Source: a virus
Lineage: Duplodnaviria > Caudoviricetes
Direction: 5' to 3' (one strand)
IMG/VR virus record: IMGVR_UViG_3300007276_000054
Location: 1 to 58,403 of that record
Length of the DNA stretch: 58,403 nt
Below are positions 190 through 52,089 of the stretch, one piece after another (position 1 is the stretch's first letter; each line of letters opens with the position of its first letter). Under the pieces are notes generated by a model. That model did no database searches. It saw nothing but the letters and a program-made list of their open reading frames with translations, and was not told the origin of the DNA. Both the position numbers and the translations under genes were made by a program.

Positions 190-652
190 CGTAATCTGTG
201 TATGTTATGGTGCAGTCTTCACATCCTAGTGCCTCTGCAATCGCTGGGTAAACTCTTCTGTATGCTTCAGTAGAGCCCCCTACAAATCCAGTTGACTTTA
301 TGTTTTCTGTTTGAGTATTGCCTAGCAACAGGCAACCGCTCGTATCCCCTTCGTCATTGCCGCAATGAATCAGGATGTGCTTGAAATTAGGAACCTCCAT
401 CACCTCAAGCATCCCCTTGTGCATCTCTCCAAATCTTTTTGAATACCTATCGTGGTATCCTCCCCACGTTTTTAATCTGAGGTTGTATGTGCCAGATGGG
501 ATTCTTGTTTCGTGCATGACTTTTTCTTTCCTGTCTTCGTCCTCTAAGGTGAAGCAAAGAAATTCTCTGAAATCACTCCCGTTGCTTACATCAAACAGAA
601 GTCCAAGCGTGTCATTCTTTTGACTACTAAACCTTACTACCTCTAGATTCAT
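182..652 (-). CDS. DUF5675-family protein, candidate endolysin
   Basis: TLG.L...FTLED...ETRIPSGTY...HILIHCGNDEGDTSGCLLLG signature; lies next to the holin. Confidence 0.75.
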   Translation of the reverse strand: MNLEVVRFSSQKNDTLGLLFDVSNGSDFREFLCFTLEDEDRKEKVMHETRIPSGTYNLRLKTWGGYHDRYSKRFGEMHKGMLEVMEVPNFKHILIHCGNDEGDTSGCLLLGNTQTENIKSTGFVGGSTEAYRRVYPAIAEALGCEDCTITYTDYDG

Positions 653-3600
653 TCTTCCAATGCTTGTAGATAAATATCCGTCTCAATCTTAGACGGCTCT
701 AGCATACTGAAGTAAGCCTGTGCCATCTCGCTTAACTCTTTGTAGTCCTGAGTATTCATGGACAAAGCCTTGGCTCGCATCACAACGTAGTAGTCTCTAC
801 TGTTCTTGACTCTCCTTTGTATTTCTCTGAGCTCACCTATATGCTTCTTAAAGGTGTCGGGGAACCTCTTCCGCATTGCTGTTTCAGCGATAGGTTGATT
901 GAATCCTTTTGAGAAAGCGTTAGCAACCTTATCAGCTTGCTGTGGGTCTGCTCCTGCTTCTTCCATGAGCTTCAAGAAACGAACTCTTCCACCCTTCTCG
1001 TCAATGTTTTTGACAGCTTCAGAGAATTGAGGGTCACTGGCAGCCAGTGCGTCCGCAACCACTTCATACGCAGCCAAGTCTTCCTCGCTGCCTAGGGCTC
1101 TTTCCTTACCCATGTTGTCAAGTGTCTTGATTAACTGCTCGGCTTCTTTGTTTCCGAAACCAATCAAGTTACCTCCAGTCATAGCTAGCTTCATGTAGAA
1201 ATACATTGCCATGTTTGGCCGGTCTTCAGGTCTTACGAAGTACTCCCTTCCTGTAGATGTAACAACTTTGTTGCTACCACTAGACATACTAATGACGTTA
1301 ATCATAGTGTTGTGAGACTCCGTAAGGAACTGACCGTATGGTCCGACGTAAGACAGCATAGACATAGGGTCACCCGGTTCAGTCCTAGACCCATAGATAG
1401 GAACACCACCTTTAACCTTGGACCAGCGCTCATAACGCTCGTCATAGCTCTCTTCACCTATGCCGAAGTTGTCCTCTTCAAGAAGCGGGAATATTAAGTA
1501 CTTGTTTACAGCAAACCTCATACTATTGTCAATCATCGCAAGAGGAATCTGCGGGAGGAAATCCACCAACGTAGATGCCCCTACATCCCACCAAGCCTTC
1601 TGCTTATCCTCTTCTGTTAACTGGTCTTCATCATCCCCAAAGATTGCAGATACTATAGCTGGCAACAGAATCTTACCCACCATGTGGAACGTAGCCAGCT
1701 CCGCAACACTACCGACGAGCGCCTTACCTCCTTCTCCTTTAGCCTTACCGCTTCCGTAGAAAATCTTCTTGACATCCGAGGTGATGCTTCTCTTCTTGTT
1801 GACGGCAAACCTAGAGAACGGGAGCAGAAAATTCTGCATTAAATAGGCGAGTTGAGGAGCAAAATCACTGCCCCCAGCGTACAGGTCAGCGGCCTGACGT
1901 GGAGTAGAAGCCGCTTGGTCTTTCGTCACCAATGAATCCGCATAACTCAGTGCCTCTTTGTTGGGACTAACGGCCTCTTGCTCCCAGTCAATGTCGCTTA
2001 CACTGTCAACTACACCCTGCTCAATTAGCGCATCAGCATAGAATCCAAACCACGAAGCGATAGCAACCACCTTGTCCGTACCCTTGAGGTTCTTGAGTGC
2101 GAGCTTATTTAGATACTCCGTCACCTTTTGGAACTGCGTAGCGTCAAATTCCATAGACCCAGTAAACGGGTCGATGTTACCGGCCTCGTAATCCCTGCTG
2201 AATACCGGGGAGTTCTGCAATAGTCTGTATCTGCCGTTGTTGTCCAGAGCAATCTTAGAGTCAGCCATGAACAAGCCCTTACCGCTGTGGTAAACCATCT
2301 CGGCTACCGTTTGCAATACATAGGGGAATGTCTTCAGTGGGTTCTTCGCTTGGAAGAAGGTGTTCAAGATTACTGGCGACTGCTTAGCCGTCTGAATCAA
2401 GAATCCACCAAAAGCCTTGGTGATTACAGCCAGCCTAATAATGTAGCTTGGGTTCTCGAAACGTTTACCGAACAAGACAAAGTCCTTCTGGAATACAGCG
2501 GGAACCTTGCCCGTGTCTTGGTGTACGTACTTGGAAATCTTTCTTTCTAGAGCCTGTTTAACTGTAGTATTGGGTATAAGGTCAGTGGCCTCTTGGGAAT
2601 TCATAACGAATCTATGTGCCAGTGTAGAGCCAACAGTCTCCATTAGCGTAACGTTCTCCCTCAATGTAGATTCATTGACTCTTAAGAAGTCTAAACCAAT
2701 AATAGCTTTACTCCCTGACAATGACCTTGGGTTACGTTCAAAGCTACTTCCAGCAACCTTCTTGGTTTGACCAAGTGCTGATTCAGTAAGGGCTTTGTGA
2801 AAGCCTTCAAACATTCTCATGGTTTCATTTACCACATCGTTTTTAGTTTGAATACGGACATCAAAAGGAGTGTAGTTGTCCTCCATCACTAGCTCTTTAC
2901 CTAGGTATCTCTCAACGTAGTTAGAGAACTGAGGAATCAAACCAACATGCATATCAACCATGAAGTCTACAAACTGAACTAACTCAGGTGATTCAGACTT
3001 AACCTTAGCTTGCAGCTCCTGAAGGCTATTGGTGTCACCAAACATAAAGTCATACGCTGCTTGCATTTCTGCAATCTCCGCCTTGGAAAACGCGCCACCT
3101 GCTGCGACCTGCTGTTGATTGTGGTATTCAATCGTGCGCTGCATGACTCCCTTTAGATTCACAAACCACTCAGCGGCGTTCTGACCTTCCTGAGTTTCAT
3201 TGTCAATGACGGGGACTTGACGGCTCATAGAGAATATCTGCATGATAGCCTTCTGACGAACTCCAGTAATCTTTTTCTTGCTCTTTCTCTCTAGCTCCTC
3301 AACCTTCTCAGACATCTTCTCTACGAGCATTGAGTGCCTGAAGTCAGCTCTACCGAAAGCGCCTTCAATAGAACCAAAGCCCAACGAACGTCTGAGTCTT
3401 GCTATCGTGATGTCATCCGTAGAAAAAGCCATCCGAATGTAGGAGTCAACCGTGTCCAAAAAGCCCATGTAAACCTTGGGTCTAGCCTGAAGACCTTCTT
3501 TCTTGAGACTTGCTAAATCACTAGCGTAATCTATATTACCTCGGACCAATGAATGAACATACCCCAATCCAAACACAGAGCCATTAACAATGAAGTCGTC

Positions 3601-6600
3601 AAGCTTGTAATCTAGGTGAGCTAGCTGTCTCCTATTAAGCTTTAGTAGTCTGTTCTTTAGGTCCGCGAAGTTCAGTTTACTCGGGTCTGCAATTCCTAAG
3701 ATGTCTGCAATCATAGGCTCTTCTAGAAGCACGTCAAGGTTAGCTGCAATTCTAGGCAACATGACGTCATCTACAATCATCTCTGATTCCTCTTCATTCT
3801 TGCCTGACTTCTCGTTGTACAGTGCCTCAAGTACACGCTCAAGGTGAGCGGGATTGCTGCTATCGAGCTGGTCGTTTACATTATTCTTATTCCACTCATC
3901 GATGTATCTAAGAATGTTCTTTCTGTTTTGAGATAGTTGAGACCTCTCATAACCAGCCTTGATTTTGTTGTACTCCTCGTCAACCGTAGTGTTGTTCTTA
4001 AGGGCCAGTCTCTCAGCTCTTGCTGCAAAGACAGCGTTTCTTCCTAGCGTTTCTTTAGATTGAAACTGAGCAACCAAAACTGCTAGGTCTTCAGCGGGTA
4101 GCTTAGGAAACGACACCGCTTCCCTTCCGTCTTCTCCCTTCTTTATTTGAGGGGCTTTCATCGAGCCCAGCGTAGCAAGGAGAGTCTGTTCGAAGGTTGT
4201 AATATCTTCGTTGTCCAGTAATGCTGGGTTGATTTTAGCTAATGCTTCTGCGTACTTGTTGTATGTCGCTGTAGACTTCAGCGCCTCGCCAGCCTTCCTT
4301 GGCTTTGCTGCTTTCCCTAGTCTCTTCTGCAATCCCCTAACCCTATTTACTTGGTCGAGGTACTCCTGCATTGCCTTCTTGGTATCTCTAGCATCGAAGA
4401 CGGCAGATAGCTTATCAATAAACGTCTGCATAACCTCAAAGCCTTCCGCCTTTACCCTTTTCCCGGACACTCGGTGAGCTTCTCTTGCAATCTTAAACAG
4501 CTTCTGAACCTGCGAGCTAGTAAAAGGAGTCTTGGAGTTTTCCTTCATTCGTTCCTTGACAATTTCTATTGCCTCCCTAAGGAACTCTTTGTAGTTTTTA
4601 GACTTGTCCCTCAATTGTTCGAGGTCGGTTCTAAGATTCTTGGCTTCAGTGGTAAGCTTTCTCACCTTCTTGTTCACCTCTTTCTTTCCAATGAGTCTTC
4701 CACGCTTGAAGTCATAAGCCCTACGGTACGCAGCAAGCGCAGCCTCCTTGGACATGCCCATGTCCTGTAACAGCTTTAAGATTTCTGGCTTGGCGTATGC
4801 CATGGTAGCCATCTGCCCAATAGACGCTTCGAGTCTTACCGGGTTCTTTCTTCTCTTGTCTCGCTTTACTGTGGGGTTACTGTATTCCTTGTCTAAGAAG
4901 TCAGCAATCTGACGAGTCAGGTCACCTTGAAATTTTACTTCCCCGGATACATCCCCTGCACTACGGCTAGTTCCTCCCCCTCTAGTTCCTTCCCGTCCAG
5001 AAGCTCCACCGCTTCTATCCACGTCTCTAGATTCGGGCTGCTCTCTGCCAATCTTGGATACGGCGTCCCGAATAGCGGGAGCCCAATCCGGCGTTCCAAT
5101 TCCGCCTGCTTCTTTGAGAAGCCCTTCTCTAAGTTGCTCTCTTGTAATTTCTGCATTTCTATACTTGGTATGGAGTGATTGAATCCTTGACTTATTTGCC
5201 TCGCTGTTCTTAAATCCAGCGGTATAGAGAAGCCTGACAGCCTCCCACGTAATGCTTTGCATCTCTCTTGGAAGCAAGCCTCGTTCCTCAGCGGCAATCC
5301 TATATGCTTCAAGATAAGCATAATAGTTACCGGAAATAGCGTGAACTGACGAATTAGAAACTTTTAACTCAGCGAATCCTTTCTTCAGGGCCCAAGGTTT
5401 CCAGTCTGCAACGCCCTTTACTTTTATACCAGCTGCTTTGGCTAGATTGGCGACCTCTTTTCCCCCGTAAACAACACCGTTCTTGTCTATGAAGGTGCCC
5501 CCAGTTGCTCCGAAGTTAGCTCCCACCTCCCCAGAAGAGGAAGACATGGGCTTGAGGAGGGCCGCTCCTACAGCGTGAGTATCAATGGTGGTGTCTGAGC
5601 CAAATCCGGGGTTGTGGATGTTGTTGAAGAAGTGTCGAATCTTGTGCTGCTCACCAAGCACCCTAGAAATCTCAGCTACATCTTCGGTAAGCAGGGCCGA
5701 AACAGCCTTGTCAATCATAGTCAAGGAAGACCAAGCGGCCCTCGACTCCTTGCCTTGTAAGTTTGTCTTCTTACCCCCCCGCTCACCGCTCGGTGTAATG
5801 ATGTCGTAAGACCTAGACATGTTCAGGTCAACAAAGGCCCACACAGCCATGGCTCTGACATTTCCCGGAGGGAGCTCAACAATAGAAGTACCGACGTACT
5901 TAGACAGCTCTCTAGCCCACGCAACTTTTGCACCCCCTGCATTCATGAAGAAGTCTACCATCTCTTGCGTGACTGGCTTATTGCCATTGTTAACCACAGC
6001 TTCGATGACCACCTCTCCAAGTCTGACGTTTTGGTACCAGTCCTTTTGAGGGGACAGGGCAGCAATGGCTGCCGCAACCTGAATCGGGTCAATGTCGTAC
6101 TCCTCCGCCAGTTGCTGGGCAATAATGTTGGCACCATCGTACCAAAGTGTAGCAACCTCCCTTAGGTCTGCCTCGAACGCATCGTGAAGGAAGAGCAGGT
6201 TGTTCTTTGCTTCCTCAATAAAGATATCGTACACCTCATCAGCGTACTTCATTGCGTCCTTACCCTCGAAAACAGAGTTCTTAAACTTTCTTACGCCTGC
6301 AACGATGTCAAGTTGAGACAAAAAGAGCGCGTTCTTGACGTAGATTTTAGGCTCGTTTTCTTTTACGTGAGCCAGACTAAGTATGTAGCTGTCATCTAGC
6401 TTAGATGATTTTGCAGTACCATACCCTTGACCAATTCTAGTCCCTTTAATGGTTTGCTTTTTGATTGACCGAGCAAACTCGCCCATCAACTTGGGCCCGA
6501 ACTTAGGGTCGTTCTCTGGACTAGGCTCAGCGAGCGCGTCTTGGAACTTGATAGGCACCCCTTCTGGCGTGGTCTTACCAGTGTCAAACATTGGGTCAGA

Positions 6601-9600
6601 AGGAAGAACCTTCTTCGTGTCCTTGGCAAGGACAAGAGCACCGATTTGAATGAGCTCACTAGCTTCGGTGACGGGCATACCGTCGCGCTTGTCGTAGAAC
6701 CAACTGTGTCTATAGGGATTCATACCAACCTGAACCCACCCCTCCTGAACACCCTCAGACTTATGGTCCTTGTGGTACTCTTTGGAGGCCATAATTTTCT
6801 CAGCCTTAGCCTTGATGGTTGCGGGGTCGTGATTCACCCAGTCACCGAACATCCTAGCTATTGTAGTCTTGTTTGTTCTAGTTGCAATACTCAACGAGCC
6901 GATTGGACTACCGCCAAACTTGACACCTTTAATTACGCCAGTCTGAGAATAAGCAACAGCCTTTCCGCTGGTGTCGCCAATCTTCTTTGCAAATGAGGAT
7001 GCGGTCTTGTTGCCTTCGTGAACAGAGGCAACCCATACATCGTAAGTATTGTATGCAGGGATATCTAATCTCAACCCAACAAAGTAACCCTCTGGTAATT
7101 CCTTATTGAGGTCGTAGATTCCTGTCTCCAACTGAGAACTTTTCAAGGCTGCGCCAATCTCTGGTAGCGTAGGCATATCGGGCACTACATCAAAAGGCGT
7201 GATAGGCATAACCCCTCTTACCACTTCGATGTATTGTTCCTGTGTAAGCGTCCCCTCTTTCATGGCCTCAATAGCCTCTACATTTCTGGGGACTCTATCA
7301 AGTCTTTGGTTTTTATCTAGCTTGAGTTCTGACTTAAGTTCTGTAAGCTGTTCCTCTGTTAAGTTGGCTGTGCTTAGGAAGCTCTCTAGCCCGGCGCCAG
7401 TTCTCAAGCTTTCATCAAGCTCTCCTTGAAACCTAACCTCCTCGTCGTCAGAAACTTGACGCTCTTCAGGCTTTAAATTCAGCCCCTCTGTAGCCTTTGA
7501 AAGACCAGCTACCGCCTCTGTAACATCTTCGCCCGAAGCCATCCTTCCCGTTAGGTTTTCAATAGCTCTACCTACGTCAGAGATGCCCGGAGTTGGAATC
7601 TTTCCAACAAAAGGCAATGGGCTAAGACCACGGTTTATCAATCCAGAAAACCGCTCAATCAATCCACGCTTCACCTCAATGCTCAAGTTACCGGCAGAGA
7701 TGTCCGCTAGAAGCTCCGTCAAAAACTCATCTGCAAATGCAGCAGACTGCATAAGCTTAACTATGTCGGTCTCCTTTGTTCCGTCAATACCTAAAGCCGT
7801 TAGTTGCTCTTGAACTCTCTCGCTTTGAAGCACTCTACTTAGGTACTTGCCGAACTTGTTGGCAACACCTTCACCTTGAAGAGATTGCGCTAGCTCTGTA
7901 GCTAAACCAACGAGAGCCTCGTCACCCAACATCGCGTCAAGACCTAGCTCGTGGTACCCTTCGTGGTACGCTGTGTTTTCAAGAATCGCAGGAACGAGCA
8001 AATGAATTTTGTAACCGCCGTCTTGTTGCTTAGCGACATACACACCTCTACCAACCTTTCCACCCGGGACAGAGTTTGCCATAGACGCTATAGTCTTATG
8101 AATCATAATCCCCTTGAACCCCTTCTTCGTCTTCGATAATGTCTTTACCGCAGTGATTGTGTTCCTTAAGCCATCCATAACGGCCTGAGGAGAAGATATT
8201 CTACCTAACCCAAGAGGCAAGTTCAATGCCATTTTATCGAGCAACAGATTATTAATCCTGTCAAGGACATTATCCGAGTTTGCTTCGTCAACAACAACGC
8301 TTTCCTTTCCTTCAAACAAGGTGTCAAGACTGTACTCTTCAAGAACTCTGGACACGTTGTCCATTATCTGGTTAGTCGTAGTCCGAGAACCCAAGTCGTG
8401 AGAAACATCAAGGTCTGTTTCCAGCTTTGCTCTCTGCTTAACCAATCCGTTTACTTCGTTCCTAAGTCTTCTTCTCTGGCTTTTGTTTTCAGTGCGTTCG
8501 TAATCAATAGCCTTCTTCGTAATCTGTGTTTGAATATCTACAAGAGTTGAGTAGGCTTCGGGGTCTGATTGTCTTAGCTCTTCATAGTAATCTCTTCGCT
8601 TCTTTCCCTCCGACTCGTTCTTTTGAATAGCGCCTACTAGTCTAGCCATTACTTCTCGGCGACCAGATACAGTTTCTTGAGCGTCTAGTTCTTTCTTGAG
8701 CTGTTGAATTACCAGCTTAGATTGTATAGACGGGATAGAACTTGCAGCTAAGCCAAGTGCCCCAACAGATGAACCAGCACCTGCAATACCACCACCCATC
8801 ACAGCACCTGCATAGAAGCCGTTCTTTATGGCCTTGTCCATTTGGACAACATCAATGTCTTGACCTTTTGCGTTCTGCTCAATGACGTACTGCATGCCGC
8901 CTGTGACAGCCTCTGTAATCGCCTCTTCTCCCATTGCAAGGGGAGTGTTCATGATTGCACCGTAGATGAAATCAGCAGCGCCTTTTGAGTTAGCCCTTAA
9001 GCCTTTAAACCTGTCAAATATTTTAGCACCTACAAATGCGGGCGCACCTTCTGCAACACCATACCCTAGAACGAAACCACCTTGCTGTACAACGTTCATC
9101 TTATTGAACCATTCCTCGTCACGAGCAATGTCATAAGCCGTCAACGAGCCCATCCCAGCTACAACTCCAGCAGTGAGCTTACTGTTTCCTGTAAGCCTTT
9201 GAGTGACAATAGCAGCAGCCATCATTGGCACACTATGGCCGAAGTCAGAGACAACATCTGCCATGCCTCCAGACCAGTCTCCGTTTTCAAACTTTGAAGC
9301 AGGGTCAACTTGAGGCGTTGAACTGTACCTATCAATAGAATTTGATAATTCCTTATAGGCTTTACGGTGCATGTCTGTCTTCTGCCTTCCGTATGCCCAC
9401 TCCCCAAACGCTAACTCAACAGCGTTTACGCCAACGTCCTCTAATCCGACACCTAACGTGCCCACTATCTTAACAACTTCTGAGCCTAACCCACGGAAGA
9501 AATCAGCAGTAACGTTACGTCCTTCAGACGTGTCACCGATGTACCCAGTGTCGTTGAGGTCCGCCATAATGTCGTACTCCTCAAGGAGGTGACGCTCAAG

Positions 9601-10554
9601 ATTTCTTACGTTCTCTTCATCAGTAAAGAAGTCTGCACTCAGTGTACCTTTTATAGCGTCATTAGTAGAACTGTTCACATCGGCCATGAGCCGCGCCTTA
9701 GCCGCACTTAACCTTCGTTGGTAGTACTGCTCTCTAGCAGACTCTTTAAATGCTTTGTTCTTATCTTGAATCTGTTCTTCAGAAAGCCCAGCTAAAGATT
9801 CGGCACCCTCTACTATCTCTTGACCAAACGCGGTGTATAGGGGGTTTCCTGTAGCTCCCATTGCGCTTAGCCCACGTCCTCTACCACCTACAGAAATAGA
9901 CTCAGCAACAGAGTCGTCGTCTCCCATTTGAAGTCCGCTTGAAAAAGCGTTGTCAGAACCCTTCAAGAGCTCCTCTAGTACCGAGTCATCGTTGTATGGG
10001 TTTAGCTTATTGCCATCACCATCTTCTCCTGAACGAGACTTAATAGAAGCCATTAGAGAAGCATTCATCATGCGTTGCTCTTCATTGCTCGCGGACCTCC
10101 AGCGTTGAGCTGCTTGAGGTCTTCCCGTTGCTTCGTAGTACCTGTCTGAGTTAAAGTTTATGTCGAAGTAATTCTCTAAGGAGTTCTGATATGTGTCGGT
10201 ATACGCGGTAATGATGTCAGCATCTTGTTTGCTAATGTCATTCCCGTCGTATAGGTACGAAGTCAATACCTCCGTCTCAGCCCTTGCATTGTATCGGTCA
10301 ATACTCTCTTGAGAGTAAGGGTCAACGATATTTACGCTCGGAACTGTACCCGAATTTCCAGACGCTTCTCTCGAAGAGACATCGATACTCGAGGTAGAAT
10401 CCGTAGAAACCTCTTGAGCCAAAAGAGAACCCGATGCGGAAGTTTTTTCTTTTTTTTTTTGACCGTAATAGTCGTTGATGATTTGGCGTACTTCTAATTT
10501 AGAGGCTCCATTAGCAATGGCTTCATCAACAAGTGCTTTCAATTCTGGCTCCAT
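649..10554 (-). CDS. Giant (3301 aa) polyvalent / virion ejection protein with HExxH metallopeptidase and inserted effector domains
   Basis: Long ORF after the tail genes. Gly/Ala-rich hydrophobic segment ~aa 360-610; HEGYH at 7951-7965; MNPYRHSWFYDK domain; LSPQKDWYQN...TIDTHAV domain; helical C-terminus. Confidence 0.75.
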   Translation of the reverse strand: MEPELKALVDEAIANGASKLEVRQIINDYYGQKKKEKTSASGSLLAQEVSTDSTSSIDVSSREASGNSGTVPSVNIVDPYSQESIDRYNARAETEVLTSYLYDGNDISKQDADIITAYTDTYQNSLENYFDINFNSDRYYEATGRPQAAQRWRSASNEEQRMMNASLMASIKSRSGEDGDGNKLNPYNDDSVLEELLKGSDNAFSSGLQMGDDDSVAESISVGGRGRGLSAMGATGNPLYTAFGQEIVEGAESLAGLSEEQIQDKNKAFKESAREQYYQRRLSAAKARLMADVNSSTNDAIKGTLSADFFTDEENVRNLERHLLEEYDIMADLNDTGYIGDTSEGRNVTADFFRGLGSEVVKIVGTLGVGLEDVGVNAVELAFGEWAYGRQKTDMHRKAYKELSNSIDRYSSTPQVDPASKFENGDWSGGMADVVSDFGHSVPMMAAAIVTQRLTGNSKLTAGVVAGMGSLTAYDIARDEEWFNKMNVVQQGGFVLGYGVAEGAPAFVGAKIFDRFKGLRANSKGAADFIYGAIMNTPLAMGEEAITEAVTGGMQYVIEQNAKGQDIDVVQMDKAIKNGFYAGAVMGGGIAGAGSSVGALGLAASSIPSIQSKLVIQQLKKELDAQETVSGRREVMARLVGAIQKNESEGKKRRDYYEELRQSDPEAYSTLVDIQTQITKKAIDYERTENKSQRRRLRNEVNGLVKQRAKLETDLDVSHDLGSRTTTNQIMDNVSRVLEEYSLDTLFEGKESVVVDEANSDNVLDRINNLLLDKMALNLPLGLGRISSPQAVMDGLRNTITAVKTLSKTKKGFKGIMIHKTIASMANSVPGGKVGRGVYVAKQQDGGYKIHLLVPAILENTAYHEGYHELGLDAMLGDEALVGLATELAQSLQGEGVANKFGKYLSRVLQSERVQEQLTALGIDGTKETDIVKLMQSAAFADEFLTELLADISAGNLSIEVKRGLIERFSGLINRGLSPLPFVGKIPTPGISDVGRAIENLTGRMASGEDVTEAVAGLSKATEGLNLKPEERQVSDDEEVRFQGELDESLRTGAGLESFLSTANLTEEQLTELKSELKLDKNQRLDRVPRNVEAIEAMKEGTLTQEQYIEVVRGVMPITPFDVVPDMPTLPEIGAALKSSQLETGIYDLNKELPEGYFVGLRLDIPAYNTYDVWVASVHEGNKTASSFAKKIGDTSGKAVAYSQTGVIKGVKFGGSPIGSLSIATRTNKTTIARMFGDWVNHDPATIKAKAEKIMASKEYHKDHKSEGVQEGWVQVGMNPYRHSWFYDKRDGMPVTEASELIQIGALVLAKDTKKVLPSDPMFDTGKTTPEGVPIKFQDALAEPSPENDPKFGPKLMGEFARSIKKQTIKGTRIGQGYGTAKSSKLDDSYILSLAHVKENEPKIYVKNALFLSQLDIVAGVRKFKNSVFEGKDAMKYADEVYDIFIEEAKNNLLFLHDAFEADLREVATLWYDGANIIAQQLAEEYDIDPIQVAAAIAALSPQKDWYQNVRLGEVVIEAVVNNGNKPVTQEMVDFFMNAGGAKVAWARELSKYVGTSIVELPPGNVRAMAVWAFVDLNMSRSYDIITPSGERGGKKTNLQGKESRAAWSSLTMIDKAVSALLTEDVAEISRVLGEQHKIRHFFNNIHNPGFGSDTTIDTHAVGAALLKPMSSSSGEVGANFGATGGTFIDKNGVVYGGKEVANLAKAAGIKVKGVADWKPWALKKGFAELKVSNSSVHAISGNYYAYLEAYRIAAEERGLLPREMQSITWEAVRLLYTAGFKNSEANKSRIQSLHTKYRNAEITREQLREGLLKEAGGIGTPDWAPAIRDAVSKIGREQPESRDVDRSGGASGREGTRGGGTSRSAGDVSGEVKFQGDLTRQIADFLDKEYSNPTVKRDKRRKNPVRLEASIGQMATMAYAKPEILKLLQDMGMSKEAALAAYRRAYDFKRGRLIGKKEVNKKVRKLTTEAKNLRTDLEQLRDKSKNYKEFLREAIEIVKERMKENSKTPFTSSQVQKLFKIAREAHRVSGKRVKAEGFEVMQTFIDKLSAVFDARDTKKAMQEYLDQVNRVRGLQKRLGKAAKPRKAGEALKSTATYNKYAEALAKINPALLDNEDITTFEQTLLATLGSMKAPQIKKGEDGREAVSFPKLPAEDLAVLVAQFQSKETLGRNAVFAARAERLALKNNTTVDEEYNKIKAGYERSQLSQNRKNILRYIDEWNKNNVNDQLDSSNPAHLERVLEALYNEKSGKNEEESEMIVDDVMLPRIAANLDVLLEEPMIADILGIADPSKLNFADLKNRLLKLNRRQLAHLDYKLDDFIVNGSVFGLGYVHSLVRGNIDYASDLASLKKEGLQARPKVYMGFLDTVDSYIRMAFSTDDITIARLRRSLGFGSIEGAFGRADFRHSMLVEKMSEKVEELERKSKKKITGVRQKAIMQIFSMSRQVPVIDNETQEGQNAAEWFVNLKGVMQRTIEYHNQQQVAAGGAFSKAEIAEMQAAYDFMFGDTNSLQELQAKVKSESPELVQFVDFMVDMHVGLIPQFSNYVERYLGKELVMEDNYTPFDVRIQTKNDVVNETMRMFEGFHKALTESALGQTKKVAGSSFERNPRSLSGSKAIIGLDFLRVNESTLRENVTLMETVGSTLAHRFVMNSQEATDLIPNTTVKQALERKISKYVHQDTGKVPAVFQKDFVLFGKRFENPSYIIRLAVITKAFGGFLIQTAKQSPVILNTFFQAKNPLKTFPYVLQTVAEMVYHSGKGLFMADSKIALDNNGRYRLLQNSPVFSRDYEAGNIDPFTGSMEFDATQFQKVTEYLNKLALKNLKGTDKVVAIASWFGFYADALIEQGVVDSVSDIDWEQEAVSPNKEALSYADSLVTKDQAASTPRQAADLYAGGSDFAPQLAYLMQNFLLPFSRFAVNKKRSITSDVKKIFYGSGKAKGEGGKALVGSVAELATFHMVGKILLPAIVSAIFGDDEDQLTEEDKQKAWWDVGASTLVDFLPQIPLAMIDNSMRFAVNKYLIFPLLEEDNFGIGEESYDERYERWSKVKGGVPIYGSRTEPGDPMSMLSYVGPYGQFLTESHNTMINVISMSSGSNKVVTSTGREYFVRPEDRPNMAMYFYMKLAMTGGNLIGFGNKEAEQLIKTLDNMGKERALGSEEDLAAYEVVADALAASDPQFSEAVKNIDEKGGRVRFLKLMEEAGADPQQADKVANAFSKGFNQPIAETAMRKRFPDTFKKHIGELREIQRRVKNSRDYYVVMRAKALSMNTQDYKELSEMAQAYFSMLEPSKIETDIYLQALEE

Positions 10555-43997: not shown

Positions 43998-44160
43998 GCC
44001 CCAAATCTAGCAACTTTTTGGGCACAGCTTTCCCTCATTCACTCTCTAGTTATTGTGACGTTAGGGGCTCACGATTACCCCATGTGTCTAAGCCCCGTAG
44101 GTGTCAAGCTGGTCCGCCCAAGCGGGCCAAGTGCGATACCGTTTTCGTGCCAAGGCAAAG

Positions 44161-52011: not shown

Positions 52012-52085
52012 GCCCTCGTAGCTCAGATGGATAGAGCAACTGCCTTCTAAGCAGTAGGCCATAGGTTCGATTCCTATCGAGGGTG
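52012..52085 (+). tRNA. tRNA-Arg (anticodon UCU)
   Basis: Acceptor GCCCTCG/CGAGGGT, D arm GCTC..GAGC, anticodon arm ACTGC-CTTCTAA-GCAGT, T arm ATAGG-TTCGATT-CCTAT; CCA not encoded. Confidence 0.95.
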
Positions 52086-52089
52086 CATT

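Follow-up and report, generated by a model that had tools for sequence, protein, structure and literature searches.

Phage 'polyvalent' proteins are thought to be injected with the phage DNA, carrying anti-defence and takeover enzymes, and have been described as combining zincin-type metallopeptidase (MPTase) domains with variable domains (Iyer, Burroughs, Anand, de Souza & Aravind, 2017; PMC5512222). The same authors predicted that polyvalent proteins undergo autoproteolysis by the MPTase, and cutting into active pieces has remained a prediction; the main text of that paper (the supplement lying outside our scope), in the part available, gives no junction or cleavage motif, 'linker' and 'boundaries' occurring zero times and 'cleavage site' only in a reference. 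We found no published junction or cleavage motif for such giant phage proteins in the literature searched. Here we describe a giant open reading frame (ORF; P0001) in a phage genome, the IMG/VR record IMGVR_UViG_3300007276_000054, whose assembly is a single contig of 58,403 bases, all of it covered by the window. The modules of its product meet at a short conserved motif, [KR]-x-Q, which is probably a proteolytic processing site. The product itself is probably a virion-associated 'polyvalent' giant protein from an uncultured podophage of a Bacteroidota host.

Two giant phage proteins provide a first comparison. Gp50 of N4, the virion RNA polymerase of a podophage, is packaged and ejected and bears an HExxH/metallopeptidase domain (PMC13434306), and gp47 of phi24B, likewise a podophage, has LPD domains and an HExxH/metallopeptidase domain, is ejected and has been found in virions by mass spectrometry (bioRxiv 10.64898/2026.04.10.717836). 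Like the protein described here, these are giants (about 2800–3500 aa) with an HExxH or metallopeptidase domain; unlike it, neither has a junction motif described in the text of these sources available to us. A second comparison comes from MARTX toxins, in which conserved long flanks surround interchangeable effector domains and a built-in protease cuts between them (PMC4453568, PMC6315884, PMC11296635, PMC2900308). The likeness lies in a variable middle between conserved flanks, with a short conserved motif here at each inter-domain linker. The differences are that MARTX are bacterial secreted toxins acting on eukaryotic cells, with a cysteine protease activated by inositol hexakisphosphate and repeat-containing flanks, whereas here we have a candidate zincin, a Gln at P1 and a phage virion as the vehicle, so that the resemblance is an analogy of function, not membership. 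Pfam gave 12 rows at E ≤ 1 over the full length of the giant protein, none of them a MARTX-type cysteine protease.

Viral polyproteins offer a third comparison: proteases of the 3C/NIa type cut after Gln at all domain boundaries, where P1' is occupied by a small residue, and the potyvirus NIa site consensus, V-x-F-Q followed by G or S, resembles the sequence VRFQ/G found here (a slash follows the Gln of each site). In contrast to those systems, the sites described below have a conserved Lys or Arg at P3 and a variable P2, and Pfam detected no chymotrypsin-like protease in the giant protein; we regard the resemblance to NIa sites as convergent or coincidental.

The giant protein resembles polyvalent proteins in being a giant multi-domain product whose gene lies with those for virion proteins, portal and terminase—its strand also encodes the portal, the large terminase, the adaptor and a muzzle-like protein—and in joining several unrelated domains in one polypeptide (HExxH, L5-gp82-like, DUF7178 and two cores). 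Hub and LPD domains in variable architectures are found through its homologues, which carry ART-PolyVal (P0010), LPD38 (P0017), the tail lysozyme Phage_lysozyme2 (P0110) and LPD23 (L013); apart from the candidate zincin, the window's own protein has no named hub domain. It differs from described polyvalent proteins in carrying [KR]-x-Q at every junction, in having its variable region between two large conserved cores and in a zincin without a Pfam family. The layout is that of a conserved N-core, two cassette slots (L5-gp82-like and DUF7178) and a conserved C-core (Table 1). The N-core contains Gly/Ala-rich hydrophobic stretches (about residues 440–612), a charged helical stretch and the HExxH domain; the C-core has one strongly hydrophobic segment in a hydropathy scan (2946–2974) and found no match by tblastn among 50,697 deposited phage records.

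Table 1: Coordinates of the giant ORF, its parts and selected features of the surrounding phage genome.
Feature	Residues	Nucleotides in window	Strand	Basis or remark
Giant ORF P0001	3301 aa	649..10554	-	Single translation; whole polyvalent protein
Conserved N-core	1-1039	7438..10554	-	BLAST matches q1-~1012/1040 in most full-length homologues; invariant columns
Zincin-like HExxH domain	about 789-977	7624..8190	-	Predicted topology; 257 profile matches
HEGYH	864-868	7951..7965	-	H864, E865, H868 invariant
ADEFLTELLAD helix	941-951	7702..7734	-	Candidate third zinc ligand E943/E947
Junction motif 1, VRFQ/G	1040-1043	7426..7437	-	End of N-core
Module 1, L5-gp82-like	1044-1334	6553..7425	-	AlphaFold2 model; PF25735 matches 31 of 33 aligned members
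Junction motif 2, IKFQ/D	1335-1338	6541..6552	-	End of module 1
Module 2, DUF7178 plus Gly/Ser/Arg-rich linker	1339-1872	4939..6540	-	PF23802
Junction motif 3, VKFQ/G	1873-1876	4927..4938	-	Start of C-core
Conserved C-core	1877-3301 plus stop	649..4926	-	BLAST matches q1869/1874-3301
Virion protein with crAss muzzle C-terminal domain	1746 aa	13678..18918	-	PF25729, E 1.7e-10; PHROG virion structural protein
Cpn10/GroES-like protein	195 aa	36362..36949	-	E 2.1e-6; just past terminase, on the side away from portal
Phage protein ending in CHU_C type IX secretion sorting domain	402 aa	42789..43997	-	E 4.4e-14
tRNA-Arg (anticodon TCT)		52012..52086	+	Among replication genes

The initial annotation had noticed three [VI][RK]FQ motifs downstream of an HEGYH sequence, and its coordinates for all four proved correct on the translation of 649–10554; its 12-nucleotide ranges cover the four residues of each motif, the fifth letter that it quoted (G, D and G) falling just outside each range. 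Three copies of [VI][RK]FQ compare with 0.079 expected from the giant protein's own composition, and a search for the looser [VILM][RK]FQ in stop-to-stop frames of at least 90 aa on both strands of the 58.4-kb genome returned these three matches in total, with none outside the giant ORF. The three copies are encoded by different codons and so are not a DNA repeat, which points to selection at the protein level; a reading of the motifs as a DNA repeat or recombination linker was rejected on this ground. A charged or low-complexity linker had been claimed before every motif. This holds for motifs 1 and 3, which follow charged or Gly/Ser/Arg-rich linkers that are disordered or low-complexity (the motif 1 tail of the zincin-region model falls below 50 in predicted local distance difference test score, pLDDT). 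It does not hold for motif 2, which comes after the final strands of module 1 and forms a short predicted strand of its own, with pLDDT of about 80. A candidate second site about 30 aa past motif 2, IKKQ, is not conserved.

Homologues were sought with residues 780–1900 as the query; 7990 candidates were scored and 399 proteins fell at E ≤ 0.001, of which the 120 listed are mostly 3200–3700 aa long and encoded on contigs of 55–65 kb. When P0001 was compared by BLAST with these 120, homology broke at the motifs: in most full-length relatives the high-scoring segment pairs cover query residues 1 to about 1012, 1048 to 1338/1341 and 1869/1874 to 3301, and the stretches between these blocks in the relatives, about 200 and about 390 aa long, are unrelated. 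The same break pattern recurs across 42 IMG/VR loci. The comparison of homologues that the initial annotation had proposed thus found modules swapped, inserted and reordered at the motifs: five relatives (P0007–P0010 and P0013) have an additional module directly before motif 1, and in P0015–P0021 the order is reversed, with DUF7178 ahead of module 1. P0018 and P0019 differ by an indel with a [KR]xQ-type site at both bounds, and the divergence of P0073 from P0074 begins three residues past a site. In P0010 the order of sites and modules reads KPQ971, ART-PolyVal (1015–1178), KFQ1187, a 56-aa module, KFQ1243, module 1, KYQ1550, DUF7178, KFQ2077, C-core. Exchange also happens on short time scales, since the identity of module 2 is out of step with that of the cores, implying that this slot alone was exchanged recently: module 2 is 99% identical in L003, 97% in L004 and 69% in P0004, whereas the N- and C-cores of these close relatives are 83–89% identical, and in L003 the 99% of module 2 contrasts with 84–92% in the neighbouring parts.

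The 56-aa module of P0010 (residues 1188–1243, with a junction site at both ends) is a mini-module with the pattern ..F.N.YGKYFS..F.NE.H..NYI.FMERKG.. that is also present in P0011, P0019 and P0073, which are very different giant proteins. Two further ORFs, P0146 (1428 aa) and P0147 (1443 aa), consist of the C-core only and begin within eight residues of junction 3; these may be natural gene splits or artefacts of assembly or gene calling.

What is conserved at the junctions became clear from an alignment of 17 full-length homologues (A1; 34–68% identity, 4714 columns). Just five of its columns have [KR]xQ in at least 70% of sequences—one at the junction of the N-core with an insert (13 of 17) and those of Q1043, Q1338, Q1876 and Q2880 (17 of 17 each)—and four of the five are module junctions. 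Around the three motifs the alignment columns are of low identity except for the K/R and the Q: K1041 varies very little and K1874 and Q1876 not at all, while P2 varies among F, A, S, Y or R and P4 among V, I, A, S, P or G. Aligned equivalents accordingly read VKYQ/G, VKSQ/G, GKAQ/N, VKRQ/G or IRYQ/G; deeper relatives have KAQ/G, KSQ/G, KLQ/G or KQQ/G, and clades sharing only the modules and a distant zincin have GR[DE]Q/K, K[FY]Q/LD or RSQ/LTDD. The idea that the FQ motifs mark swappable slots therefore survives in a changed form, the motifs being conserved and lying at boundaries with swaps, inserts and reordering, with [KR]-x-Q rather than [VI][RK]FQ as the conserved signal.

Counted over distinct sequence contexts in the 120 listed homologues, [KR]xQ stands in register at motif 1 in 11 of 16, at motif 2 in 47 of 50 and at motif 3 in 42 of 51 contexts, against a background rate of 0.0055 per residue. 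At motif 3 the P1' residue is G in 38 of the 42 [KR]xQ contexts. In relatives, too, every junction bears [KR]xQ, and the sites are often doubled, with a spacer of 10–20 aa, as in GKAQ/AIVDAEAKAQ/G before the C-core. The neighbouring virion proteins contain one conserved [KR]xQ column in about 2490 aa. The small homologues of module 1 (175–506 aa, n = 24) often keep the last strand, 'xIKF', and then usually continue with E, N or K, after which GG frequently comes; a Q follows IKF only in P0122 and P0138, the latter resembling a fragment of a giant protein. Since IKF is kept in small homologues that lack the Q, I-K-F belongs to module 1 and the Gln alone is specific to the junction. We consider it almost certain that [KR]-x-Q is a real junction signal under selection.

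Two side observations concern related sequences. The fifth conserved column, Q2880, is part of a K-D-Q at residues 2878–2880 (nt 1915–1923, minus strand) that is present in 17 of 17 homologues inside a highly conserved block of the C-core (VTKDQAASTPRQAADLY); it could be a site or merely a conserved core motif. In many of P0123–P0135, which are small homologues of module 1, the last strand is followed by F-x-[EKNQD]-GG, at times repeated (..EGG..EGG..), which may serve as another kind of junction or terminal signal in proteins that do not belong to the [KR]xQ family.

An independent set of distant giant proteins was obtained by searching a profile of the HExxH region (A2, 22 sequences) against 1.84 billion cluster representatives, which gave 257 matches at E ≤ 0.001, 70 at ≤1e-10 and 21 at ≤1e-30. 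The 150 listed of these 257 comprised 145 new identifiers, of which 96 were kept (≥1800 aa), with 49 shorter proteins and the five identifiers from the first set excluded; four of the 96 were then dropped because the zincin match reached the motif itself, leaving 92 proteins from clusters at 50% identity or less. Before these four were dropped, a sharp peak of [KR]xQ was seen at the predicted end of the zincin profile, where two 20-aa bins have 0.43 and 0.29 sites per protein, the other bins having mostly 0.03–0.17 and a few up to 0.23. Within a 40-aa window at the zincin end, the 92 proteins have 65 [KR]xQ sites, where their remaining sequence would predict 19.0 (3.42-fold; Poisson P 1.2e-16), with at least one site in 52 of 92. 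Ratios of observed to expected for control patterns were lower: 1.02 for [KR]xE, 0.88 for [KR]xN, 0.95 for [DE]xQ, 1.41 for Qx[KR], 1.61 for [KR]xD and 1.71 for [KR]xS. The positional peak and the weaker controls together show that the signal is real, Gln-specific and linked to the C-terminal boundary of the HExxH domain in a very broad family.

The HExxH region has conserved candidate positions for zinc ligands and a predicted topology like that of zincins. The initial annotation had pointed to a DEFL.E downstream of HEGYH, and this lies within ADEFLTELLAD; both the HExxH and the Glu helix are invariant in homologues. H864, E865 and H868 are invariant in 17 and in 22 aligned homologues and fall on predicted helix 100–131 of the model, and A941, E943, L945, E947, L949 and D951 are invariant in the 17, with E943 and E947 also invariant in the 22-homologue alignment and lying on predicted helix 178–194. 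The order of helices (H) and strands (E) predicted by AlphaFold2 (H29–49, E53–59, E78–82, E88–93, H100–131, H178–194), in a model of low confidence, is consistent with the zincin core described by Iyer et al. We therefore describe the region as zincin-like, on the strength of predicted topology and invariant residues, and as assignable to no named peptidase family.

The initial annotation had also bracketed two globular modules between the motifs, and both were borne out. Module 1 (1044–1338) folds in AlphaFold2 at pLDDT 89.5 with a predicted template modelling score (pTM) of 0.89, using a 33-sequence alignment, and 31 of these 33 members match PF25735 (Phage_L5_gp82) at E ≤ 0.1, with a best value of 2.3e-7; the window's own module 1 scores 20.8 bits (E 3.6e-4), under the 27-bit cut-off. 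It has a conserved block, GW.QVGMNP.RHSWFYDKRDG, together with RLD and H136. Against the PDB its fold gave a best Foldseek E of 0.51 and none of 48,161 chains at VIA Z ≥ 2, and the ESM Atlas gave an uninformative best score of 0.75. Among the predicted viral structures of BFVD there were 14 matches at E ≤ 0.001, in phage proteins of several domains whose names refer to ART-PolyVal, Zeta toxin, tail lysozyme, LT_GEWL or PcfJ-like domains, and small phage proteins also match (E 3e-5 to 1.7e-2). Module 2 contains DUF7178 (PF23802), which scores 79.2 bits where the cut-off is 27 (E 5.1e-22); the Atlas clusters closest to module 2 consist of phage proteins of 412–481 aa, with DUF7178 in three of the four displayed, and in many homologues module 2 is replaced by other modules. 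We found no mention of DUF7178 in the literature, and neither module 1, module 2 nor a further profile (A3) had a significant match among PDB sequences. When Pfam was run on 10 alternative slot segments from relatives, one had a family (LPD23).

We propose that the giant protein would be cut endoproteolytically after the Gln of [KR]-x-Q, most probably by its own zincin. The first cut would take place in cis at the zincin's own C-terminal boundary—with which the position of the motif at the zincin end would fit—and the remaining junctions would then be cut, inside the capsid or after ejection, giving four products: the N-core (1–1043), module 1 (1044–1338), module 2 (1339–1876) and the C-core (1877–3301). 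Cleavage, the zincin as cutter and injection are proposed from analogy, gene position and the positional association of zincin and motif; the giant protein would travel in the virion. That the [KR]-x-Q motifs are proteolytic processing sites we consider likely. The case for the protein's own zincin as the enzyme is weaker than that for cleavage, and we give it an even chance; self-cleavage at [KR]-x-Q releasing the modules, taken as a whole, appears to us equally balanced.

Several observations weigh against this proposal. The virion RNA polymerase of N4 bears an MPTase domain and yet is packaged unprocessed (Iyer et al., 2017; PMC5512222). The zincin assignment is itself weak: the AlphaFold2 model of the region has a mean pLDDT of 59.6, none of the 22 aligned members matches a Pfam peptidase family at E ≤ 1, the A2 profile found nothing below E 0.33 among PDB sequences, and the top Foldseek rows, for anthrax lethal factor, are not significant (E 0.2–0.7), VIA likewise giving matches to LF-N and Certhrax that lie within noise (Z 4.2–4.7 over 153–163 residues, root-mean-square deviation 4.8–5.3 Å). 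At the junctions, motif 2 differs from motif 3 in its highly variable P1' (H, R, K or D, among others), and motif 2 is predicted to be ordered, with 'IKF' structural; three of the 17 aligned homologues (P0007–P0009) have the insert module without a Q at its N-terminal junction. Over whole proteins, the 96 distant representatives have no excess of [KR]xQ (1500 against 1538 shuffled) or of [KR]xQG (81 against 104 shuffled), and the asymmetry between forward and reverse [KR]xQ is equalled by E and N controls, so that the signal is visible only position by position. Enrichment at the zincin end could also just mark a junction, with no implication for which enzyme cuts there.

An alternative that we consider unlikely is that [KR]-x-Q is cut by another enzyme—a host protease, an unrecognised phage protease or a module such as the near-universal module 1—and that the HExxH domain acts on host targets or serves packaging as in N4. 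MPTases may also be effectors on host proteins (Iyer et al., 2017; PMC5512222), and module 1 has a site at either end, a strongly conserved block and a predicted fold absent from the PDB; the weak zincin assignment also speaks for this alternative. Yet scans of 20 window proteins with Pfam and of 20 with PHROGs turned up no other peptidase family, the near-absence of conserved [KR]xQ sites from neighbouring virion proteins makes a general maturation protease less likely, the motif in 92 distant proteins goes with the C-terminal boundary of the zincin, and module-1 homologues occur as small proteins that need no self-excision. Rather doubtful, too, is the possibility that the motif is never cut and is instead a short linear boundary element, whether a docking strand on capsid, portal or chaperone, an unfolding or threading signal, or a capping strand. 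The prediction of motif 2 as an ordered edge strand whose IKF is kept in stand-alone homologues would suit such a role, as would the packaging of the N4 polymerase intact with its MPTase domain (Iyer et al., 2017; PMC5512222) and the crAss001 virion, in which short segments of one cargo protein bind portal and tail barrel. Cleavage is favoured over a binding element by the invariance of the polar K/R and Q alongside variable hydrophobic positions, by the doubled sites and small P1' at motif 3, which resemble polyprotein sites, by the loss of the Q in most small module-1 proteins (mostly well under 520 aa) and by the scarcity of conserved sites in neighbouring virion proteins; the disordered or low-complexity linkers that hold motifs 1 and 3 also sit poorly with an uncut element. 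Finally, the FQ motifs might be a coincidence of chance or composition, or a DNA-level linker for recombination, with no role in the protein. The motif was defined post hoc and [KR]xQ is a frequent pattern, a giant protein having about 16 copies, but at three junctions all 17 homologues have the Q between variable flanks, P2 varies while K and Q are kept, codons differ between sites and the positional enrichment recurred in an independent set, which together make this explanation very improbable.

The genome around the giant ORF is divided between two strands, with the large terminase, portal, adaptor-like and other virion proteins on the minus strand and replication genes on the plus strand from about 44 kb. 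At about position 44000 of the window, where the coding strand switches from minus (structural) to plus (replication), the sign of the AT skew also changes. The giant ORF is the third gene downstream of the gene for the muzzle-like protein, and the cargo genes of crAss001 presumably adjoin its muzzle gene. Mass spectrometry of crAss001 detected, among other virion proteins, large 'cargo' proteins for which ejection is assumed. The muzzle domain suggests that the tail tip of this 58-kb phage is crAss-like, and its portal resembles those of Cellulophaga phi38:1-type phages, with about 29% identity to these and to the portals of Flavobacterium podophages. The CHU_C protein, judging by its sorting domain, may be exported by a type IX secretion system of the host. 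Portal similarity, the type IX sorting domain and genome features together suggest a host in the Bacteroidota; blastn of the portal and terminase region against deposited phages gave no match.

A three-residue boundary signal tied to an in-built HExxH domain makes the prediction that polyvalent proteins cut themselves simply testable. On a tentative view, which we hold a little less firmly than self-cleavage in this one protein, the several hundred giant virion proteins of this family could be the phage counterpart of MARTX, sharing one grammar of cassettes bounded by [KR]-x-Q and cut by a zincin. The [KR]-x-Q rule could delimit hundreds of cargo modules in uncultured marine phages, including module 1 and DUF7178. 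If self-cleavage at these sites is true, any module lying between two sites would be delivered to the host as a free effector, and the motif would be both a release signal and an evolutionary landmark for the exchange of cargo, allowing the boundaries of mature effectors to be read from metagenomic sequence.

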